Shown here: positions 293 through 10,156 of the stretch, in pieces
How positions within the stretch are numbered: the first letter of the stretch is position 1
How the letters are laid out: each line of letters starts with the position of its first letter
Source: Escherichia phage AV111
Sequence record: OR352941.1
Reading direction: 5' to 3' (one strand)
DNA length: 64,000 nt
Notes under the pieces: model-generated
The model's input: the letters and a program-made list of their open reading frames with translations, nothing else
Database searches by the model: none
What the model was told of the DNA's origin: nothing
Position numbers and translations under genes: made by a program

Positions 293-390
293 TGTATTTT
301 TCCATAGGCATCATTATATTTTACTCATGTTTAAAAGATAAGATGATTATATACTAAGAGTTATACAGCATTTAAAACTTTAAATGGCTC

Positions 391-939
391 TTAACGAGCC
401 CATTTAATGATTTCTGTAATCAAATTATTACGTTCGCTTGCATTAAATCCTATAACTTTGTTAGAACCATCATGATTAAGTAATTGATACGTTTGGATTT
501 TGTTATGAATTGCAAACTCTTCAAAATGTGAAATGACTGTATTAAAACCGAATGAAGACAAAGTAATAAGGTCGTCTTCAAAACTTTCAGACATTTCGTT
601 ACGTGTTAAAATAATTGTGAACACATCATGGTTTTGGCAAAGACGAACATAATCCTGTTCATAAACGTCAAGAACCGAGTCCGCATCTTGTCGAATACGT
701 CCATAAACCCAGTTACTAATATATCCACGGTCTAACAGATAAATCTTAGTAGGGTCTAAATAATTCAACATCGTTTCGAAACAGCCAACTTCATTTCGAG
801 ACTTAACATCGAAACGTCCATCAACTGTTCGTTTAGGGAAATCAATCTTTACATATCTTTCACTAATTTCCATTATGTCATTAATGAAAGTTGTTTTACC
901 AGCATTATCTGGGCCATCTACTAAAATAATTTTAGCCAT
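391..939 (-). CDS. P-loop (Walker A GPDNAGKTT) nucleotide/nucleoside kinase-like protein, 182 aa
   Basis: ORF track; N-terminal MAKIILVDGPDNAGKTTF resembles dNMP/thymidylate-kinase-type P-loop; sits where T4 has beta-gt region genes. Confidence 0.6.
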   Translation of the reverse strand: MAKIILVDGPDNAGKTTFINDIMEISERYVKIDFPKRTVDGRFDVKSRNEVGCFETMLNYLDPTKIYLLDRGYISNWVYGRIRQDADSVLDVYEQDYVRLCQNHDVFTIILTRNEMSESFEDDLITLSSFGFNTVISHFEEFAIHNKIQTYQLLNHDGSNKVIGFNASERNNLITEIIKWAR

Positions 940-940
940 T

Positions 941-1840
941 TTATTCCTCGATTACGACATCTTCATATTTAGGTATATTATACGGCGAAGAAATTAAAGC
1001 GTTAAAGTAGATGAACTCACCAAGACCTGGATGGAATACTTCTTCAGGATTTTCGAAATATTGAATCTTCGGACGTCCTTTAAGAATTTGATAGTACTCA
1101 GTTTTAGTTGGATTAAAAATTCGAATCAGCGCTTCTTCAGGATACTTATTTCTGTCGAAACTATTATTTGGATCAGTTATATAAAGCGGTTGACCTAATT
1201 GAATTGCGCATTCAACCACTTGTTCAAAACGATAGCATGGGTCACTAATTCGAAATGGATGAAAAATACCATCTAGATGAATAGGAGCCAAATCACCTAC
1301 AAGACGCTGCATGACGGAAGGACGTATAACTTTCTGCGTTACGATAATCTTATTACCATCTGCACCTGCGTTAACCAGCACTTCTTTTTGACGTTCATTC
1401 AACACAGTAGTTTGAAGTGAACGATTAACAGACAACATGTCGGTTTTTAAGAATTCATCAATATAAAAACGTGGTTTATTAGGGTCTGCAGTGATATTGA
1501 AATTGAATTCTACATCAAAAGCGCCGTCATATCCAGTGATATCTGTGATTAGAAAATCGCAATCATAATAAGCAATTAATGAATCAACTACAAATTCATT
1601 TTCAGACCAGAAATATTTACGAGTGTTATACGCGTTATCTTTATACCATAATGGAACAAACTTAAATTCTGGAAAAAGACGTTCGCATTCTTTAATATCA
1701 GATGCATTACGTGGATATGTAATCACATCACCCGGATTAGCACGGTGCAAATGAAGTTGGAAGTTGCCATCCTTAAGGATAGCATACTGTCCAGTTTCAT
1801 AAGACCGCATACTCAAGATAGGTACGCGGAAAATAGCCAT
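941..1840 (-). CDS. hypothetical protein, 299 aa (occupies the T4 beta-gt position; function unknown, candidate transferase)
   Basis: ORF track; tightly packed between P-loop gene and 42-like gene (1-nt spacing/overlap); no recognisable motif by eye. Confidence 0.6.
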   Translation of the reverse strand: MAIFRVPILSMRSYETGQYAILKDGNFQLHLHRANPGDVITYPRNASDIKECERLFPEFKFVPLWYKDNAYNTRKYFWSENEFVVDSLIAYYDCDFLITDITGYDGAFDVEFNFNITADPNKPRFYIDEFLKTDMLSVNRSLQTTVLNERQKEVLVNAGADGNKIIVTQKVIRPSVMQRLVGDLAPIHLDGIFHPFRISDPCYRFEQVVECAIQLGQPLYITDPNNSFDRNKYPEEALIRIFNPTKTEYYQILKGRPKIQYFENPEEVFHPGLGEFIYFNALISSPYNIPKYEDVVIEE

Positions 1841-2556
1841 TAGTCAAGGAATCCTTTAACATAATCAAAATCACGTTCAAACACATGGGCACTTACCATG
1901 GTATGAGTATAATCACCAACTTCTACACCACATTCGTTAGCGATATAATGAAGTAATTTTCCTTGGAGATAAAAATCCAACTGCATAACAACAGCACAGT
2001 TCTGAGAACGCATATGACAGTGGGTATAAAGCTTACCATCACGAATATAATAAGTCACTGAGTCAGTACATGGATATTCAAGCGTTTCGTCTGAATCAAG
2101 CAAAGCCTGATCAGAACTTTCTAGAATTTGGAACACAACTCTTCGAGAGTTAGGCTTCTCTTTAAGTTCTTTTAGAAGAGCTGGTAATTGAGCCGCAATG
2201 CGAGGACCATAGAAAGTGTTGAAGTTCGCCGGCAAAACATCTGATTTTGGTTTAGAAATAAATTTAGCGACATTAGGATATGCCTTAAACGCTTCTTCTG
2301 CGTTGGTACCACCAGAAATCATAAACTTCCAGAAGTCTTCGGCATATTCATAAGAGATGCGGTTAATACGTGGGTCGGTCATTTTGAATGATGACGGAGT
2401 GTCAACAACTACTGTCATAGACCCAATTTCATTACAACGTCCAATACGAGAATCAGTTACGAATTCCGGGTTTTCTAAAATTTCACGATTGACTGCTTTA
2501 AATGCGGTTTGAAAATCTGCGGCTTTGATATATTTCATTGTGTTATGTTTTCCCAT
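1840..2556 (-). CDS. 42: thymidylate-synthase-family pyrimidine hydroxymethylase (gene 42 position, divergent dCMP hydroxymethylase homolog)
   Basis: Motifs PNSRRVVF, YPCTDSVTYYIRDGKL and HMRSQNCAVVMQLDF parallel the T4 gp42 PDSRRG / CTNTVQYLIRD / MRSNDVVFG blocks, but overall identity to T4 gp42 as I recall it is low. Confidence 0.7.
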   Translation of the reverse strand: MGKHNTMKYIKAADFQTAFKAVNREILENPEFVTDSRIGRCNEIGSMTVVVDTPSSFKMTDPRINRISYEYAEDFWKFMISGGTNAEEAFKAYPNVAKFISKPKSDVLPANFNTFYGPRIAAQLPALLKELKEKPNSRRVVFQILESSDQALLDSDETLEYPCTDSVTYYIRDGKLYTHCHMRSQNCAVVMQLDFYLQGKLLHYIANECGVEVGDYTHTMVSAHVFERDFDYVKGFLD

Positions 2557-2597
2557 GTTTACCTCAATACAATTATTATATACTCAATTCGTAAAGC

Positions 2598-2837
2598 TTA
2601 TTTGAATTTCTTGGCAGTGTTGATATAACGTAAAGCTTCAGCATCGATACTTCCAAGAACACTATGAAGAAATGCATCAGCGTAGTATTCCAATTGAACA
2701 GATTCTTTAATCACTTTAGCCGCTTTAGTTTCAAACAGGCCCATCAGGGCCTTTTTAAGAATTTGTTCATTAGTGTTCAGTTTCATAGTCAAAATCTCTT
2801 CATTAAGTTGGTGGTTAAAAGTTTTTCTAGAAATCAT
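2598..2837 (-). CDS. hypothetical protein, 79 aa
   Basis: ORF track; overlaps stop of upstream gene by 4 nt, operon-like packing. Confidence 0.45.
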   Translation of the reverse strand: MISRKTFNHQLNEEILTMKLNTNEQILKKALMGLFETKAAKVIKESVQLEYYADAFLHSVLGSIDAEALRYINTAKKFK

Positions 2838-3994
2838 TCCGGGTACCTCAAAGCGTCATCAGAGTTAGTTATATCAATAATAGATATAGAGTTTTCTGCT
2901 AACCCGTTTTTAGATAATTGACGTTTATAATATCTTTCACAATATGTACACGTCGTCCCGCAGATTTCATTAGCACAATCGAAATCTGGATGTCTGAACC
3001 ACCTTTTTTCTAAAAAGCCATCTAACAAAGAGGTTTCAATATTTACTGTATGTGAAAACTCAGTTTCGTTTTCAAGAGTGAAAATAGTCTCTAAAGGCTT
3101 CCACAGTTCTAACAAATTACCTTCAAACTTTTCAGAAGCGTATGCTTCAAGAACTTTCAAAATGTAGTCTGTGCTACCTGTACGTCCTGAAACTTTGAAT
3201 TGAGTGATACCAATATCATTATAAAGTTTCAAATCTTGAGGACGAACAAAACGAGTTCTCAACCAGTTAAATGGGTCTGTATCACGAGCTTTAATACAGT
3301 GCTGCATAGGATATCCGTTTAAGGATTTAGCATCATCAGCTGTAACATCAGTACTATGGAAAATATAGCAAGAGTCACGATAGCTACAATGTGTTGTATA
3401 CCCTTTACCAGCATTAGAACAGAACTCATTTACAAGAACTTCAAATATTATATTGTTCTTATTGCAAAACTCTGCTGCACGCTTCAGGAAAGAAACTGAA
3501 CGGTTCTTATGAATTCCACAGCAGACCTTTTTGATATTATATTGGTCATGCAAGTATTTGATTTGAGTTACAGCATCGACATGTAGAATTGTTGAAACTT
3601 CAATCTCAATGTCTTTATTGACTTCACGAACAATTTCCATAACAACAGGGTTAGCGATAGTAATACGCCATACGCCTATTGACCAAAGATACTGAACATA
3701 ATCCTGAATAGCTTTCTTCTTCCACTCAACTAGTTCTCTTTTTGAACCAGGATTTATCGTGTTGAGTGTATAGTTAAAGCAAATACCTAATTCGTTACAA
3801 CGTTTAACGTAATCTTCTAACATCTTTTTGTCAACGTCAGGAAGCCTAAAATCAGGTCTGGCTGCTACAAAAGCCATTTCTCTTGTAGAGCCGTATACTT
3901 CGTTTATCAAGCTATTAGGATAGGTTTTATTGAGCTCTACGATTTTATCAAGAAGAGCTAAATCAAAATTCGTTCCGATTTTAAAAGTATTCAT
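2834..3994 (-). CDS. cysteine-rich hypothetical protein, 386 aa (possible metal/Fe-S binding; modification-island gene)
   Basis: ORF track; C-terminal FDCANEICGTTCTYCERYY (Cx4Cx3Cx2C) plus other Cys clusters; no confident family assignment. Confidence 0.6.
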   Translation of the reverse strand: MNTFKIGTNFDLALLDKIVELNKTYPNSLINEVYGSTREMAFVAARPDFRLPDVDKKMLEDYVKRCNELGICFNYTLNTINPGSKRELVEWKKKAIQDYVQYLWSIGVWRITIANPVVMEIVREVNKDIEIEVSTILHVDAVTQIKYLHDQYNIKKVCCGIHKNRSVSFLKRAAEFCNKNNIIFEVLVNEFCSNAGKGYTTHCSYRDSCYIFHSTDVTADDAKSLNGYPMQHCIKARDTDPFNWLRTRFVRPQDLKLYNDIGITQFKVSGRTGSTDYILKVLEAYASEKFEGNLLELWKPLETIFTLENETEFSHTVNIETSLLDGFLEKRWFRHPDFDCANEICGTTCTYCERYYKRQLSKNGLAENSISIIDITNSDDALRYPE

Positions 3995-4056
3995 TTTTTT
4001 TGCATCTCGCGTTAATTGATGCGATGGTTTTTTTTTTGCAGGTCTTACTTAAATTA

Positions 4057-4458
4057 TTATAGATTCGGTTTATATGATTTAAATGTTTCGAATTCGCCTT
4101 TATTCATAAGAGCTTTGAATTCATCAGGACGCATAGCTTTGTCGTCGATAATCCAATCATATACTGGTTTATGTGTTAGCAAATTATGGTACTTCAAACC
4201 AATGTTTTCCAAGTTCTGAATAAGACTTGGGAGAATGTCAATTGCTATACGACCAGGACCTACTGACTTCATACCACGAGCAGTGTAAAGCGTTATGGTA
4301 TGCCCTGCATCATACAGGGCATTAATGGCAGACACCATTTCGACGTCTGGTTTGAAGTTCACGTAATCACGATTGTTATTCCATTCCGTGATGCAATCAT
4401 CGACATCAAAACAAAGATTAAGCATGTTTTCTACACAGTGCATTAGATTCGTTCCCAT
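4057..4458 (-). CDS. HAD-superfamily sugar-phosphate phosphatase (KdsC/GmhB-like), 133 aa
   Basis: N-terminal FDVDDCIT = HAD motif I (DxD); small size typical of HAD IIIA phosphatases; overlaps upstream gene end. Confidence 0.65.
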   Translation of the reverse strand: MGTNLMHCVENMLNLCFDVDDCITEWNNNRDYVNFKPDVEMVSAINALYDAGHTITLYTARGMKSVGPGRIAIDILPSLIQNLENIGLKYHNLLTHKPVYDWIIDDKAMRPDEFKALMNKGEFETFKSYKPNL

Positions 4459-6128
4459 TGATGAGTGATATCGCCACCGATTGGACGATAAGAAACACCA
4501 GTTTCTTTATCAGTTAGTACCCATTTACCAGGATTTTTTGTAATCAGAGTAGCCGTTACAGGTTCTGCTACGTCATAACTAATAGAGCCGTCTTGAAGTA
4601 CACGGCCCATGTTACGTAATTGCTTAGTCAGAAGTTCCATACCTTTATAATATGCTGCTACCGCTTTAAGTGGATTATTCTTGAAATAACCACCTAATGC
4701 AATCCAGATAATTGCTACAGCCAAATGATGATACTCGTTAAACGAACTCATCTTTCCATATTTGTAAACTAATGGATTGATGTTAATAGTCACATTACAA
4801 GTTGTTTCATCAATAGTAAACTGTCCCCAGGCCGGATTAGCATTGAATTCATCATAACCTGAAACAGCATAAAGCACTTTAGCTTCATCATACAATTTTG
4901 GCCCGTAAATCTTGGTTTCGCCAAAATATCCACGAGGGTCGATAAACTTGACTTCGCCGTTATCAGTAATCATAGTATTACTGAAGTTCGGGTCACCATG
5001 AATAACAGAGTACTGTCCCTGAGAACGGTTATGATAACGAATAAGGTGTTCTAAAGCTTGTTTCAGCATTGGCTTCAGACGTCCAATCTTAGTGTAGTTC
5101 ACATGTGTGATTTTACCAAATGAATCAATCAATGGTTGAATACTTTCACAACGATCAATAACTTTCGTATAGAATTCTTTAGTGAAATCACGACGAACAG
5201 TTTCAGGACTTACAAAATAAGTGTCTGTGCTGAATTTCAGTGCATCTAAAATTGCATCAACAATTTGTGGACGAGCAAGACTTGATTTGGATTTAATATA
5301 TTCAAATGCCGGCTTACCTTTAATGCGTTCCATTTCAAAGTTATTTTCATTAACAGAAACTAACTGAGGAACTGAATCTGATTTCACTTTAAGATACCAC
5401 GAAATCTCATCTTTCTGAAGAGCTCGACCCTGTTCGGTTAATGCGAATTTAGTTACAGTTTCTTCACCAATTTCAACTGCATTAAAACTACGATTAAGTT
5501 CACGAACTTCATGAGCTTTTTCAAGTTTAGGCATATCACCTAAATCAATTAGATTCATAAGCTCTGATTTATTGAATGCGCTGCCGTAAAGGAATTCTAC
5601 GAAATCACGTCCTTTGCAGTATTCATGAATTTCCTCATCGGTAGAACCCATATAGAATTCCCAGTCTTTGAACTGATAAATTCCTACAACATTACCACCT
5701 GTTGAACCTACGTTAGTGATATTTTCACCGTCGAAATTATATCGACATTCATCACCCTTAACATAGATTGCGTTAACATTCCAAGACCATGAACCAAAAT
5801 CAGGAATAATATCACACCAGTTAACAATTACGTTATGGCCGTCTAAATCTTTGTGTAATTTAGCAAGAGCATAAGCAGAACCATACGCTTCATCAACTGT
5901 ACGAATAGTCACATTGAACCCTTCTTGCTCACAATAAGCTCGAACAGTTTCAGCAAATTTTGAATGAACTACTACAATAATTTCATCTGCGCCAAGGTCA
6001 GAATAAATTGTATACAAATTGCTCAGAATAGTGTCTTGTTTATAGTTAACAAGCACCTTAGGAATATGATGCGTTATTGGATACAAACGAGTTGCCAGTC
6101 CAGCACCAAGAATAACAGCTTTTTTCAT
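4443..6128 (-). CDS. bifunctional sugar-1-phosphate nucleotidyltransferase (N-terminal) / sugar anomeric kinase (C-terminal APH/ChoK-like), 561 aa
   Basis: N-terminus MKKAVILGAGLATRLYPITHHIPKVLV = GxGxRLxPxT pyrophosphorylase signature; C-terminus VIHGDPNFSNTMITDNGEVKFIDPRGYFG = HGDxxxxN catalytic loop of APH/choline-kinase fold. Confidence 0.75.
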   Translation of the reverse strand: MKKAVILGAGLATRLYPITHHIPKVLVNYKQDTILSNLYTIYSDLGADEIIVVVHSKFAETVRAYCEQEGFNVTIRTVDEAYGSAYALAKLHKDLDGHNVIVNWCDIIPDFGSWSWNVNAIYVKGDECRYNFDGENITNVGSTGGNVVGIYQFKDWEFYMGSTDEEIHEYCKGRDFVEFLYGSAFNKSELMNLIDLGDMPKLEKAHEVRELNRSFNAVEIGEETVTKFALTEQGRALQKDEISWYLKVKSDSVPQLVSVNENNFEMERIKGKPAFEYIKSKSSLARPQIVDAILDALKFSTDTYFVSPETVRRDFTKEFYTKVIDRCESIQPLIDSFGKITHVNYTKIGRLKPMLKQALEHLIRYHNRSQGQYSVIHGDPNFSNTMITDNGEVKFIDPRGYFGETKIYGPKLYDEAKVLYAVSGYDEFNANPAWGQFTIDETTCNVTININPLVYKYGKMSSFNEYHHLAVAIIWIALGGYFKNNPLKAVAAYYKGMELLTKQLRNMGRVLQDGSISYDVAEPVTATLITKNPGKWVLTDKETGVSYRPIGGDITHQWERI

Positions 6129-6169
6129 GTTGAAGTCCTCATTGGTAAGTAGGAGTATTGTACACTATT

Positions 6170-6313
6170 CTAGTTAAAGCATTCATACTTTGCTTGTAGT
6201 CCAATCATAATCCATCCAATTACAAGTGTTGGAATCATTACCGGAGCCGTTAAGCTCCAGTAGATAGTCATGACAAGCATCAATAGTAAAAGTCCTATTG
6301 TTATTGCTTTCAT
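6170..6313 (-). CDS. small hydrophobic membrane protein, 47 aa (not in ORF track; imm-region small protein)
   Basis: Own translation MKAITIGLLLLMLVMTIYWSLTAPVMIPTLVIGWIMIGLQAKYECFN; ATG overlaps stop of SIS gene (ATGA). Confidence 0.4.
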   Translation of the reverse strand: MKAITIGLLLLMLVMTIYWSLTAPVMIPTLVIGWIMIGLQAKYECFN

Positions 6314-6945
6314 TGTTCGCCTCGTAACATGGCACCTAGTGCACCGCCTGGATGGAACTTAAGGAAATCATTAGAGGTAAATCCACGTTCAGACGAAAGG
6401 TTGATAGCAAACGTATCGATAAGCGCTAACAACAATGTAGTGGACATTGTCGGAGCTAAAGAGTTCTCGTCAACTTCTACCGCGATACCGGTACAGAACG
6501 TATAATCAAAAAGAGCTTCGTATTCTTGTGGAATGTCAGGGTTACAATGTAACAGAATCTGTTTAACCTGAGGACGAATCATACGAAGATGTTTAGCAAC
6601 ACCTATCATTTCTTCAGTCTTACCAGAACGACTGATGTGAACTAATACATCATTAGGTGCAATAAATCCTGCGTCACCATGAGAATAATGCCCAGTGTTC
6701 AAGTACATACTCGGGATACCGAGTGAAGCAAATGTCTCAGAAGCTTTAGTTGCGATATTAGCATTCTTACCAACACCTGTAATAATTACCCGGCTTTCAT
6801 AATTGCTAAGTCCGGGGCGTCGAAGAGTTTCTAGAATAGCATTATAACGAGCAGGGTTTTGACTAATTACTTTGGCCATAGCGGCCAAAGAAGAAGCTTG
6901 TTTTATGATTGCGTCAATAGCGATAGTAATAGGAGTAGTTTTCAT
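6310..6945 (-). CDS. SIS-domain sugar-phosphate isomerase (KdsD/KpsF-type arabinose-5-phosphate isomerase-like, no CBS domains), 211 aa
   Basis: RVIITGVGKNANIATKASETFASLGIPS...HGDAG resembles the KdsD GxGKSxxIxxKxAATxASTGTP...HGDLG core rather than the GmhA GNGGS motif. Confidence 0.7.
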   Translation of the reverse strand: MKTTPITIAIDAIIKQASSLAAMAKVISQNPARYNAILETLRRPGLSNYESRVIITGVGKNANIATKASETFASLGIPSMYLNTGHYSHGDAGFIAPNDVLVHISRSGKTEEMIGVAKHLRMIRPQVKQILLHCNPDIPQEYEALFDYTFCTGIAVEVDENSLAPTMSTTLLLALIDTFAINLSSERGFTSNDFLKFHPGGALGAMLRGEQ

Positions 6946-6985
6946 ATTTCTCTCATTTAATTAGTTTACCGTCCATGACATTATA

Positions 6986-9697
6986 TCAAAAATCGAACAT
7001 ATCGAACAGAGATGCTTTCTTCTCATAATCGAGTTTCGCTGCTGATGTGAATCCTTCAAGTGGTTTAATAAATGTCTTCTCAAGGAGAACAGTGTAGTCC
7101 ATCCAATGAAGTACATCGTCTTTAATTAAATCTGTGATTTCAGTACCAGAAGGCCATGCGATACATTTATCACCGAATGGGTTTCCTTCACGTAAAGGCA
7201 GAACATATACTTTTTCACCTTCTACAACTTGCGGCGCATCAATATTACCTTTGATAGCTCGGTTATATGTCAGAATTCCACGAATATGGAACGGGCATTT
7301 GGGGCCAGGGAATCCACCGACATCATATTTAGCAATGTTATTCGCAGAAGATACCGACGCGATGCTAATATAATTCAATTGACGGAATTCTTTTTCAAAC
7401 TCTTTAAAATATTCTTGTAATGATTCTTCACCTTCTTGAAGCATACGACGAATACATTCTTTAAGAGCTTTCTGTACTGCTTTAGGGGTCGAAGATTTCT
7501 GAGTCTCTAGACCCATGATTTTGAGTTTAGGCTCAGCGTAACGAGTGCCTTCCATATCCCACACGTTTAATGCATAACGTTTCTTACCAGTCCAGAATCC
7601 ACCAATACCTTTAGAACCGAGCGGAGGGCCAGCAATAGCTTCTCGGTCCATGAACATCAAATGTTGCTTATTATTCATGTATTCACACATTTCACGGAAA
7701 CCTCTATCAATAGCTGGTTCCATACGTTCACGTGCAAACTTATCTAAGAAGTCTACCCAATGGTTGGTATCACGGAATTTAGATTCACCAACCTTATCAA
7801 TAATTTTATCTGCAGATACGTAAATGGAGTCTGTATCACCATATAGAACGAAAGCTTCGCCTTCTGTACCACAAACTTCATTCAGATATTCATTAACTTT
7901 ACGTTCAATCCACTGTAAAGCCATTTGCCCAAATGTTGTGATTGCAGTTGCATTACGCAAATCGTAATAACGGAACCAAACGTTTCCAAGTGCACCATAA
8001 AGTGAGTTGATAAGCAATTTACGGTTAATCTGTGCAGTCATACCTGCAACTTCAGTACGTTGAGCTCTAAACAACATTTCATTAAGAGATTTAGCAGACA
8101 ACTTTTTAATCTTTTCTTTAATCTCATCACTGAAGTCGAAACGATAATCAACATCTAATGGTTCGTCAACAGAAAGATTAGGATTATGCAATGCCTCTTT
8201 AATTATTTCGCCATTACGTTGAGCTGCAAGCATGTAACCTTTATGTTCTTTACGTTGATTAAAGACCTTAGTGATTTCAGTTGGAACTACACCATCACGG
8301 TCTTTATAATACATCATGCCGTTAGGAGAGCAACTGTACACATCTGAAGGACGTTCAGCGATTGCGTTAATATAATCATGCAGTGGAGCTACTTTAAACG
8401 TTCCTGCTATTGTTTCAGGGCTAATATTCACTTGGCGAATAATACTTGGATACAGAGATGTAAGGTCGAAACTCATTACATATTTGTATCGATTTGGAAT
8501 AGGTTCCTTAACAAAAGCGCCAGGATAAGGTTGAACCGGGTGAGAACGACCTTGTGGAATCACCTTGTTCTGCTCTTTAAGGCTATTAAAAATAATAGCA
8601 TCCCATGTTTTAATTGGACTGAACACAGATTGAATCTGAATTTTAGCATAATAACCCATGTCCAAGCTCAAGTTAATGAACTGGCGTTTAGCATCAATTT
8701 GCAATACACGATATACGTCGATAATGTTATAAGAAATATATCGTTGGTGATTGCTTTCACGAAGCTTAGAAATAGGGCCGTCATATTTCAGTTTACCAAC
8801 GTTCAATTCAAATTCTGAAATGTAATCCAGAGAATACGACGGTTGGTTCGTGAAAGAGAACTTTTTGTAAAGGTCAATGTAATCAAGAACAGAGATACCG
8901 AACAATGTAATGATTTCACGAGAACCATACATGTTTTCGATAACTTTAACACGAGTTTTACGATGTGGTGATAAACGTTTCGCAGTAGATTCGCCAAAAA
9001 TATTCTTGATTCGGTTATACACATATGGAATATCAAATGACTCAACGTTCCATCCAGTCAAAATGACAGGAGTTTTCTGTTGCCAGAAGTTGAGATATTC
9101 CATCAACAATTCTTTTTCGTTATCGAACGGCATATAAATGATTTTATCGATAATTTCGGATGGAACTTCATCACCGCCTTGTTCTTGAAGCTTAGCAGCG
9201 ATTTCAATAGACCATTCTTCTACATTACCATATGGAGAATTCAATAGATCAAATACGTAGAACCTGTCGTCAATTGAGTCATAATGGGTGATAGCATCAA
9301 TCGGATGTTTTGCTTGTGACGGCTCAGGGAACCCATCCGGAGATGTTACTTCGATGTCGAAGTTAGCCACACGAATTTTTGTATGGTCGTATTTGATTTC
9401 ATAGTTATAAGTGTCAGACAAATACGCCAATTTGAAATCGTCCATGCCAAGTGCTTCAAGTCCGATATCTTCCATGCGTTTAATCCATTGAGACGCATCG
9501 CGCATATTAGCGAACAACTTACGAGTACACGGCTTACCGTAGATATCGAAATATTTCGTAGCCTGACTTTCTGGACAATGAGCAAACAGTGATGGTTTAT
9601 ATTCTACTTCACGAGTACGTTCACGGCCATTAGAATCGATGTAACGTTCAAAAATTGAATCACCAATCTGTTCAACCGTTAAGTAAAATTCTTTCAT
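6986..9697 (-). CDS. 43: DNA polymerase gp43 (family B, with 3'-5' exonuclease)
   Basis: 903 aa; N-terminus MKEFYLTVEQIGDSIFERYIDSNGRERTREVEY and motifs DIEVT, YGDTDS match RB69/T4 gp43. Confidence 0.97.
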   Translation of the reverse strand: MKEFYLTVEQIGDSIFERYIDSNGRERTREVEYKPSLFAHCPESQATKYFDIYGKPCTRKLFANMRDASQWIKRMEDIGLEALGMDDFKLAYLSDTYNYEIKYDHTKIRVANFDIEVTSPDGFPEPSQAKHPIDAITHYDSIDDRFYVFDLLNSPYGNVEEWSIEIAAKLQEQGGDEVPSEIIDKIIYMPFDNEKELLMEYLNFWQQKTPVILTGWNVESFDIPYVYNRIKNIFGESTAKRLSPHRKTRVKVIENMYGSREIITLFGISVLDYIDLYKKFSFTNQPSYSLDYISEFELNVGKLKYDGPISKLRESNHQRYISYNIIDVYRVLQIDAKRQFINLSLDMGYYAKIQIQSVFSPIKTWDAIIFNSLKEQNKVIPQGRSHPVQPYPGAFVKEPIPNRYKYVMSFDLTSLYPSIIRQVNISPETIAGTFKVAPLHDYINAIAERPSDVYSCSPNGMMYYKDRDGVVPTEITKVFNQRKEHKGYMLAAQRNGEIIKEALHNPNLSVDEPLDVDYRFDFSDEIKEKIKKLSAKSLNEMLFRAQRTEVAGMTAQINRKLLINSLYGALGNVWFRYYDLRNATAITTFGQMALQWIERKVNEYLNEVCGTEGEAFVLYGDTDSIYVSADKIIDKVGESKFRDTNHWVDFLDKFARERMEPAIDRGFREMCEYMNNKQHLMFMDREAIAGPPLGSKGIGGFWTGKKRYALNVWDMEGTRYAEPKLKIMGLETQKSSTPKAVQKALKECIRRMLQEGEESLQEYFKEFEKEFRQLNYISIASVSSANNIAKYDVGGFPGPKCPFHIRGILTYNRAIKGNIDAPQVVEGEKVYVLPLREGNPFGDKCIAWPSGTEITDLIKDDVLHWMDYTVLLEKTFIKPLEGFTSAAKLDYEKKASLFDMFDF

Positions 9698-9755
9698 TTA
9701 ATTTCCTTTAGACGAGTTATTGTCTTTTGTTTGTTGATGAACTTATTATACTCCA

Positions 9756-9775
9756 AATGGGACCGAAGTCCCATT
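9756..9775 (-). promoter_or_regulatory. stable stem-loop (AATGGGAC-TTCG-GTCCCATT) between regA stop and gene 43 start; candidate regulatory/operator or processing hairpin
   Basis: Perfect 8-bp inverted repeat with TTCG tetraloop; followed on the minus strand by TATAAT-like hexamer, not by a U-tract. Confidence 0.4.
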
Positions 9776-9778
9776 GCT

Positions 9779-10156
9779 TTAATTACCAATTGTATATTTT
9801 GCTTTCAAAGTCCAGTCATCTTTCTGTTTAAAAGAGATAACACGGAAGTTATTAGTCAGGCCAAACAGATCTTCACGAGCAGAGTCTTCAATAACAATCA
9901 ATCCCCAGTCTTCAAGCAACTGGGCAATCGAATCACGTCGCTGATAGTCTTCACCGTCAATATCAACCTGACGTCCATCCATACGCAACATTTCTTTAAA
10001 GTGGACGATGTAGTATTTACCTTGCTTTTGGAGGATATGACAGGACTGATAAAGAACTTTATCCTTGTTATTAGCGATGCCCATACGGGTCAAAGTCTCT
10101 TTGACTTTCAGAAAATCTTCGGGGTTCTTCAATTTAATTTCAATCATTTTTACCAT
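9779..10156 (-). CDS. regA: RegA translational repressor
   Basis: 125 aa; [30 protein letters not shown] matches T4 RegA; conserved position after 62. Confidence 0.9.

Follow-up and report, generated by a model that had tools for sequence, protein, structure and literature searches.

A probable AfhE ortholog with nucleotidyltransferase and kinase domains in the DNA-modification cluster of Escherichia phage AV111

Results

The gene and its two domains

Positions 4443-6128 on the minus strand of a stretch of Escherichia phage AV111 DNA (record OR352941.1; the whole stretch analysed, 64,000 nucleotides, is referred to here as the window) hold an open reading frame (ORF) of 561 amino acids (aa) with an ATG start and, as read from the window sequence, a TAA stop at 4445-4443. 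We consider it very probable (roughly 0.9) that this gene is the Mosigvirus ortholog of afhE, encoding a bifunctional arabinose-5-phosphate 1-kinase and uridine diphosphate (UDP)-arabinose pyrophosphorylase of the UDP-D-arabinofuranose pathway. An earlier reading of the DNA (the original prediction) had placed an RmlA-like nucleotidyltransferase ahead of a kinase resembling aminoglycoside phosphotransferases (APH) and choline kinases, and Pfam, motifs and AlphaFold2 folds agree with both the domains and their order. The protein is laid out as follows.

4443..6128, minus strand: probable AfhE / RB69 gp52:53 (ORF53_52c) ortholog, from the ORF, identity to RB69 and the literature
5499..6128, minus strand: sugar-1-phosphate nucleotidyltransferase domain, aa 1-210, RmlA/LicC/MurU-like, from Pfam, motif and AlphaFold2
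4608..5489, minus strand: small-molecule kinase domain of APH/choline-kinase fold, aa 214-507, from motifs and predicted structure
4446..4607, minus strand: C-terminal tail of 54 aa, aa 508-561, with short beta strands, from predicted secondary structure (predicted local distance difference test, pLDDT, 82-90)

The N-terminal half is recognised by Pfam NTP_transferase at aa 3-99 (E = 8.5e-10) and carries the signature LGAGLATRL...PK at aa 7-24 (G8-x-G10-x-x-T13-R14-L15 ... P23-K24; nucleotides 6057-6107). The conserved acidic residues D106, D195 and D198, which correspond to the metal and sugar ligands of the AfhE family, are also present. The best structural and sequence matches of this domain include cytidylyl-, thymidylyl-, guanylyl- and uridylyltransferases. 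Similarity to LicC is marginal (E = 2e-5, over the N-terminal 95 residues only), and the NCBIfam MurU models scored 24.8 and 19.9 bits against cut-offs of 250 and 370, which places the protein outside the AmgK/MurU family.

The C-terminal half is too divergent for assignment from sequence alone. Pfam gave only sub-threshold kinase-like matches (aa 344-409), no NCBIfam kinase model matched the protein, Choline_kinase was absent from both the Pfam and the NCBIfam scans, and a sequence profile search of the PDB with an alignment of 54 sequences returned nucleotidyltransferases only among the 60 matches listed. The HGDxxxxN catalytic loop named in the original prediction is present as HGDPNFSN at aa 377-384 (H377-G-D379-x4-N384; nucleotides 4977-5000), and the remaining kinase residues are the adenosine triphosphate (ATP)-binding K227, E241 of helix C and the metal-binding D397, which lies in IDPRG at aa 396-400.

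We used AlphaFold2 to predict the structure of the full-length protein from the 54-sequence alignment (pLDDT 94.3, predicted template-modelling score 0.91) and of aa 211-561 on its own (pLDDT 95.1). Structural matches of the C-terminal domain were choline kinases (scores 15.1 and 15.0), glucosamine kinase (14.7), maltokinase (14.6), fructosamine-3-kinase (14.5) and LicA (13.8), and further matches included APH enzymes, 5-methylthioribose kinase (13.1 and 13.0) and NahK (12.1). Protein kinases scored at most 10. The kinase half resembles small-molecule kinases, as had been proposed, and identity to choline kinases across the structural matches is 11-16%. A search of PDB sequences found no solved AfhE-like structure.

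Residues G10, R14, K24, D106, D195, D198, K227, E241, G378, D379, N384 and D397 are invariant in all 54 of the 54 homologs aligned, which extend down to about 26% identity. Because the catalytic residues of both halves are among them, both halves appear to be conserved as active enzymes. We rejected a pseudokinase reading of the C-terminal half on the same alignment, in which K227, E241, D379, N384 and D397 never vary. Closer relatives, mostly from T4-like phages, are the only ones to keep the 54-aa tail, which can be followed to about 34% identity and is absent from distant homologs of about 510-540 aa; it might serve as a docking element for the phosphatase encoded by the adjoining gene.

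Gene neighborhood

The window comes from an RB69-like T-even phage of the genus Mosigvirus. The DNA of the gene is 99.1% identical to that of phage vB_EcoM_TU01, the gene is present in about 150 Mosigvirus records, and its product is 100% identical to a protein cluster (P0001) of 230 member sequences. Over its first 9.7 kb the window runs collinear with Mosigvirus genomes, at about 98% identity. Read along the minus strand, the genes occur in the order below. The succession of isomerase, afhE ortholog, phosphatase, U32 protein, synthase, glycosyltransferase and kinase is shared with RB69 and Bas46, and the arrangement of isomerase, phosphatase and synthase genes around the afhE ortholog is also that of a Kanagawavirus.

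6986-9697, minus strand: DNA polymerase gp43
6310..6945, minus strand: SIS-domain D-arabinose-5-phosphate isomerase (RB69 gp55), ribulose 5-phosphate to arabinose 5-phosphate, the predicted substrate supplier; Pfam SIS, E = 9.6e-10
4443..6128, minus strand: the probable afhE ortholog
4057..4458, minus strand: HAD-type phosphatase, AfhF / RB69 gp51 ortholog; NCBIfam TIGR01689 capsule biosynthesis phosphatase, E = 1.9e-13
2834..3994, minus strand: Peptidase_U32-family protein (RB69 gp50); Pfam PF01136, E = 7.3e-11
2598-2837, minus strand: 79-aa ORF
1840..2556, minus strand: thymidylate-synthase homolog, 5-hydroxy-dCMP (5hodCMP) synthase (RB69 gp48), which makes the base that bears arabinose; Pfam Thymidylat_synt, E = 2.3e-15
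941..1840, minus strand: putative DNA arabinosyltransferase 1 (RB69 gp46:47), 299 aa, consumer of nucleoside diphosphate (NDP)-arabinose; structural assignment in PMC13326640 Table 1
391..939, minus strand: thymidylate-kinase-like nucleotide kinase (RB69 gp45), last gene of the module; weak dTMP-kinase P-loop match, RB69p045 and bas46_0140 annotations, PMC13326640 Table 1

The gene lies, then, in an arabinosyl-5-hydroxycytosine DNA-modification cluster, in keeping with the DNA-glycosylation island to which it had originally been linked. The isomerase is also matched by the NCBIfam models KpsF/GutQ (E = 8.9e-32) and KdsD (E = 3.9e-30) and by PDB entries 3etn, 5uqi and 2xhz. The phosphatase is identical to PDB entry 9iqw at 127 of 129 aligned residues, and the 5hodCMP synthase is about 98% identical to 9iqc, 9ir2 and 9iqu. 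The glycosyltransferase at 941-1840 had no Pfam match and no PDB sequence match. A promoter and terminator scan of positions 300-10000 yielded sites no more numerous than in shuffled sequence.

The phosphatase gene has an in-frame ATG (4443-4441) that overlaps the stop codon of the afhE ortholog as TAATG at window positions 4441-4445. RB69 gp51 (RB69p051) is annotated from this internal ATG and the alignment with 9iqw begins near the same residue, so the true phosphatase start is probably ATG 4443-4441 and the longer start at 4458 is probably unused. Given the overlap and the annotated start of RB69 gp51 at this point, the two genes are probably translationally coupled.

Counterparts in RB69 and HY126

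The window protein is 99.5% and 99.4% identical, respectively, to the RB69 pieces ORF053c and ORF052c, and the frame change that separates these in the RB69 reference falls at aa 218/219, exactly at the domain boundary. Two ORFs that are split in that reference (NC_004928; L008 2598-3498 and 6095-7781) are single and intact in the window, namely 046/047 (941-1840, the same 900 nucleotides) and 052/053 (4443-6128). Thomas et al. (2018) resequenced the RB69 region, reported ORF053c and ORF052c to be one 561-residue gene, ORF53_52c, which was expressed, and proposed that its product, together with ORF055c, is an enzyme of UDP-arabinose synthesis (PMC6024577). That the window ORFs are intact fits the published conclusion that sequencing errors account for the RB69 splits; at 052/053 the error is one base.

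Later work has extended this proposal. The gene was annotated in phage Bas46 (2021) as a 'putative enzyme involved in UDP-arabinose biosynthesis'. Lee et al. (Nucleic Acids Research 2026; PMC13326640) reported that RB69 DNA bears mono- and di-arabosylated 5-hydroxycytosine derived from 5hodCMP, which is made by the thymidylate-synthase homolog, a function established experimentally; arabinose itself has been chemically identified in the DNA of RB69 and of Mosigvirus NP. The same authors modelled gp52:53 as an N-terminal nucleotidyltransferase and a C-terminal kinase, with an APH (3ham), choline kinase B1 and glucosamine kinase (6hwl) as kinase matches, and equated it with AfhE of phage HY126 (PMC13326640). 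According to their citation of He et al. (Nat Chem Biol 2026), AfhE first adds a phosphate to arabinofuranose 5-phosphate, yielding the 1,5-bisphosphate; AfhF, the HAD phosphatase, takes one phosphate off to leave arabinofuranose 1-phosphate; and AfhE finally makes UDP-arabinose (PMC13326640). The identity of 98-99% between the neighboring window enzymes and 9iqc, 9iqu, 9ir2 and 9iqw suggests that the phage so characterised is a near-identical Mosigvirus. These entries are also consistent with a crystal structure credited to He et al. by Lee et al.

The enzyme is a known one: earlier publications already cover the gene, its domain architecture and its part in the pathway, and its biochemistry has been published for a near-identical phage. 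The fusion had originally been presented as unusual, but neither rarity nor novelty is supported. In RB69 it was recognised in 2018 as one 561-aa candidate enzyme for UDP-arabinose, the Bas46 annotation of 2021 says the same, and in 2026 it was described as bifunctional. The ORF, predicted folds, residue conservation, neighborhood and near-identity to RB69 seen in the window lead us to infer that this protein would behave as AfhE of HY126 does.

Public records name the gene inconsistently, with 'hypothetical protein', 'bifunctional protein GlmU', 'mannose-1-phosphate guanyltransferase' and 'nucleoside-diphosphate-sugar pyrophosphorylase' all in use in GenBank, and the neighboring HAD phosphatase frequently appears under 'phosphoheptose isomerase' or 'polynucleotide kinase'. 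Given the many mislabelled GenBank records, the value of the present analysis lies in correct annotation.

Proposed pathway and the order of its steps

In the pathway that we favor, the SIS isomerase would convert host ribulose 5-phosphate to D-arabinose 5-phosphate, and the C-terminal kinase domain would transfer a phosphate from ATP to the anomeric C1 hydroxyl, so forming arabinofuranose 1,5-bisphosphate. The HAD phosphatase from the adjoining coupled gene would then remove the 5-phosphate, after which the N-terminal RmlA/MurU-like domain would combine arabinofuranose 1-phosphate with uridine triphosphate (UTP) to form UDP-arabinofuranose. Phage arabinosyltransferases would finally load the sugar onto 5-hydroxycytosine in phage DNA, which would block host restriction enzymes. 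Fusions of HAD, SIS, nucleotidyltransferase and kinase domains in giant viruses (described below) offer independent 'Rosetta stone' support for these four activities forming one pathway.

The idea of an anomeric (C1) sugar kinase in the original prediction is supported by HY126, the ortholog AfhE having both C1-kinase and UDP-arabinose pyrophosphorylase activity in the account given in PMC13326640. The idea of a compact enzyme for two consecutive activation steps needs revision, because in that account the substrate is D-arabinose 5-phosphate and not free sugar, and a separate HAD phosphatase acts between the two steps. The suggested biocatalytic interest, which lies in converting a pentose phosphate compactly to a UDP-furanose, is genuine but has already been recognised.

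Several points weigh against assigning this pathway to the window protein. The activities of AfhE and AfhF and the order of their steps were measured on HY126 and are known here at second hand through PMC13326640, and the closeness of the window protein to the AfhE sequence of HY126 is gauged indirectly, via RB69 and the neighboring enzymes. An alternative order still stands in Table 1 of PMC13326640, where the putative functions are given as 'Dephosphorylates Araf5p to Ara' and 'Phosphorylates Ara to Araf1p'. The specificity for UTP is not readable from sequence, and a 54%-identical homolog occurs in Shewanella phage Thanatos, whose pentose may differ, so that sugar specificity can vary within the family.

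The entries of Table 1 correspond to a different order of steps, in which the HAD phosphatase frees arabinose, the kinase acts on free arabinose at C1 and the nucleotidyltransferase follows, as in MupP-AmgK-MurU. This salvage-type order comes close to the one envisaged in the original prediction. The MupP-AmgK-MurU pathway is built from homologous folds and runs with the phosphatase first, and the window protein has MurU and APH-type sugar kinases among its best matches by structure. However, the text of PMC13326640, where it cites the HY126 work, has AfhE act on arabinofuranose 5-phosphate and AfhF act afterwards on the bisphosphate, and the DLP3 phosphatase gp81, a homolog of the HAD protein in the window, has heptose-1,7-bisphosphate 7-phosphatase as its Foldseek match (PMC13326640). 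We therefore regard phosphorylation of free arabinose as improbable.

It is less probable still that the chemistry is the same but the carrier or the sugar is another, whether cytidine (CDP-), deoxythymidine (dTDP-) or guanosine diphosphate (GDP-) arabinose or a different pentose. The range of nucleotidyltransferases among the N-terminal matches, from cytidylyl- to uridylyltransferases, would allow this, as would the wording of PMC13326640 for RB69 ('NDP-arabinose ... potentially UDP-arabinose') and the Thanatos homolog. Set against these are the chemical identification of arabinose in the DNA of RB69 and Mosigvirus NP, the description of AfhE of HY126 as a UDP-D-arabinose pyrophosphorylase in the report cited by PMC13326640, and the fact that the window phage is a near-identical Mosigvirus.

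A C-terminal half that is a pseudokinase or a non-sugar kinase (for choline or ethanolamine, of LicCA type), so that only the nucleotidyltransferase would matter for DNA modification, is hardly credible: the source of one metagenomic homolog calls it 'choline kinase', but the catalytic residues are all invariant in the 54 homologs, the gene is always flanked by those for an arabinose-5-phosphate isomerase and a sugar-phosphate phosphatase, giant viruses fuse SIS and HAD domains to the same kinase, identity to choline kinases is as low as given above, and activity on arabinose 5-phosphate is reported for AfhE of HY126 in the passage that PMC13326640 devotes to it.

Comparison with other kinase-nucleotidyltransferase systems

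AfhE of Escherichia phage HY126, RB69 gp52:53 and gp82 of Acinetobacter phage DLP3 share with the window protein the same domain order and the same neighbors (arabinose-5-phosphate isomerase, AfhF and 5hodCMP synthase), and we found no difference of substance; all belong to one gene family, almost certainly with one function. The window protein is about 56-57% identical to homologs from DLP1-type Acinetobacter phages.

The HldE/GmhA/GmhB system, the ADP-heptose pathway of Gram-negative bacteria, follows the same logic. A sugar phosphate made by a SIS isomerase is phosphorylated at C1 by a bifunctional enzyme, a separate HAD phosphatase takes the distal phosphate off the resulting bisphosphate, and the NDP-sugar is then made by the second domain of the bifunctional enzyme. 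HldE combines a PfkB-type kinase with a cytidylyltransferase-like adenylyltransferase, in that order. These folds are not homologous to those of AfhE and their order is reversed relative to the window protein, in which the transferase precedes the kinase, and neither PfkB nor PF01467 was matched in the window protein by Pfam or NCBIfam; HldE is therefore an analog and not a family member. Fucokinase/GDP-fucose pyrophosphorylase (FKP) is likewise a bifunctional kinase and pyrophosphorylase that makes an NDP-sugar. FKP has a GHMP kinase and is a true salvage enzyme that performs two consecutive steps on a free sugar.

The view that such bifunctional enzymes are confined to GHMP or PfkB kinases overlooked the LicCA fusion of Treponema denticola and the AmgK/MurU pair. 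LicCA, of the CDP-choline pathway, combines the same two folds as the window protein, but LicC/LicA and LicCA handle choline with no intervening phosphatase, whereas the window protein takes a sugar phosphate. Similarity to LicCA is at the level of fold only (12-20% identity), and the window context consists of sugar-phosphate and DNA-modification genes, so the protein is not of LicCA type. In MupP-AmgK-MurU, which serves the anabolic recycling of N-acetylmuramic acid in Pseudomonas, separate genes act on sugars, with the phosphatase first and the kinase on free sugar; that pathway handles a hexosamine acid, the window enzyme a pentose. The 5-methylthioribose kinase MtnK, NahK, maltokinase and glucosamine kinase share the APH fold but stand alone, act on other substrates and are 8-18% identical.

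Distribution of the family

Using tblastn, we detected the protein in 373 phage records (363 at full length) from hosts that include Escherichia, Acinetobacter, Klebsiella, Vibrio, Serratia, Proteus and Shewanella. Searched exhaustively with HMMER, the kinase part gave 1254 representatives at E ≤ 1e-3, of which 451 reached E ≤ 1e-10; every representative stands for one 50%-identity cluster. A nucleotidyltransferase was detectable N-terminal to the kinase in 189 of the 256 kinase-bearing proteins that were fetched, and 33 of the 256, many of them fragments, began with the kinase. As judged from these predicted domains, the fused form is the commonest arrangement in the kinase clade and the fusion is not unusual. 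This survey adds context to the annotation, in that the fused form dominates the clade and giant viruses join the entire pathway in what appears to be one protein.

The latter arrangement occurs in giant-virus-like proteins of 890-955 aa that carry HAD, SIS, nucleotidyltransferase and APH-like kinase domains in one chain.

Four-domain fusions: P0084 (L002 8001-10781), P0118 (L005 8001-10679), P0088, P0089, P0091, P0092, P0095 and P0109

The contigs bearing them have giant-virus hallmarks (MutS+HNH, RNA polymerase Rpb2, RNA_pol_N and dUTPase) and sugar-modifying genes, and one four-domain fusion comes from a eukaryote transcriptome set. From the domain content of these fusions, the whole pathway from ribulose 5-phosphate to NDP-pentose appears to be a single polypeptide in them. 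A further group of proteins of 786-790 aa (P0106, P0107, P0111, P0112 and P0116) has the nucleotidyltransferase and kinase and, beyond them, a C-terminal region called cupin or mannose-6-phosphate-isomerase-like in two sources.

Homologs of 25-28% identity also occur outside T4-like phages, in Tenacibaculum phage PTm5 (L009 6001-8939) and Enterococcus phage 9183 (L010 3866-7593). Both adjoin a thymidylate-synthase homolog and a phosphatase. In PTm5 the latter is a histidine phosphatase; in 9183 it is a small protein of HAD-like type, and the 9183 locus also has a thymidylate kinase and a dUTPase. These loci are possible DNA-pentosylation modules. More broadly, and only tentatively, the kinase clade might point to many still uncharacterised modules for pentose activation beyond the T4-like phages, in line with the marker-gene idea of the original prediction, some of them with other NDP-pentoses or with DNA targets other than cytosine.

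The U32 protein and chorismate mutase

The Peptidase_U32-family protein of the cluster (RB69 gp50) is listed in Table 1 of PMC13326640 only as 'sugar or heterocycle reductase'. Proteins at least 80% identical to it occur in 221 phage records, and the hosts listed are all Enterobacterales or Shewanella, which are facultative anaerobes. No Acinetobacter phage is among the matches listed, whereas 57 Acinetobacter phage records carry an AfhE homolog and these phages possess the other pathway genes.

A chorismate-mutase homolog is present in 48 phages and, where inspected, is located between the U32 gene and that for 5hodCMP synthase. The one from Klebsiella phage KLB31 (L012 4983-6394) is a bona fide AroQ (PF01817, 38.5 bits). 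The 79-aa ORF of the window (2598-2837) was considered as a chorismate mutase and rejected, as it had no BLASTP similarity and no Pfam match.

In the open-access literature, we found no paper tying the U32 protein or the chorismate mutase to anaerobic formation of 5-hydroxycytosine. The U32 enzymes TrhP, RlhA and UbiU/V are O2-independent, prephenate-dependent hydroxylases. By analogy with this chemistry, the U32 protein and the chorismate mutase together may provide an anaerobic route to 5-hydroxycytosine.

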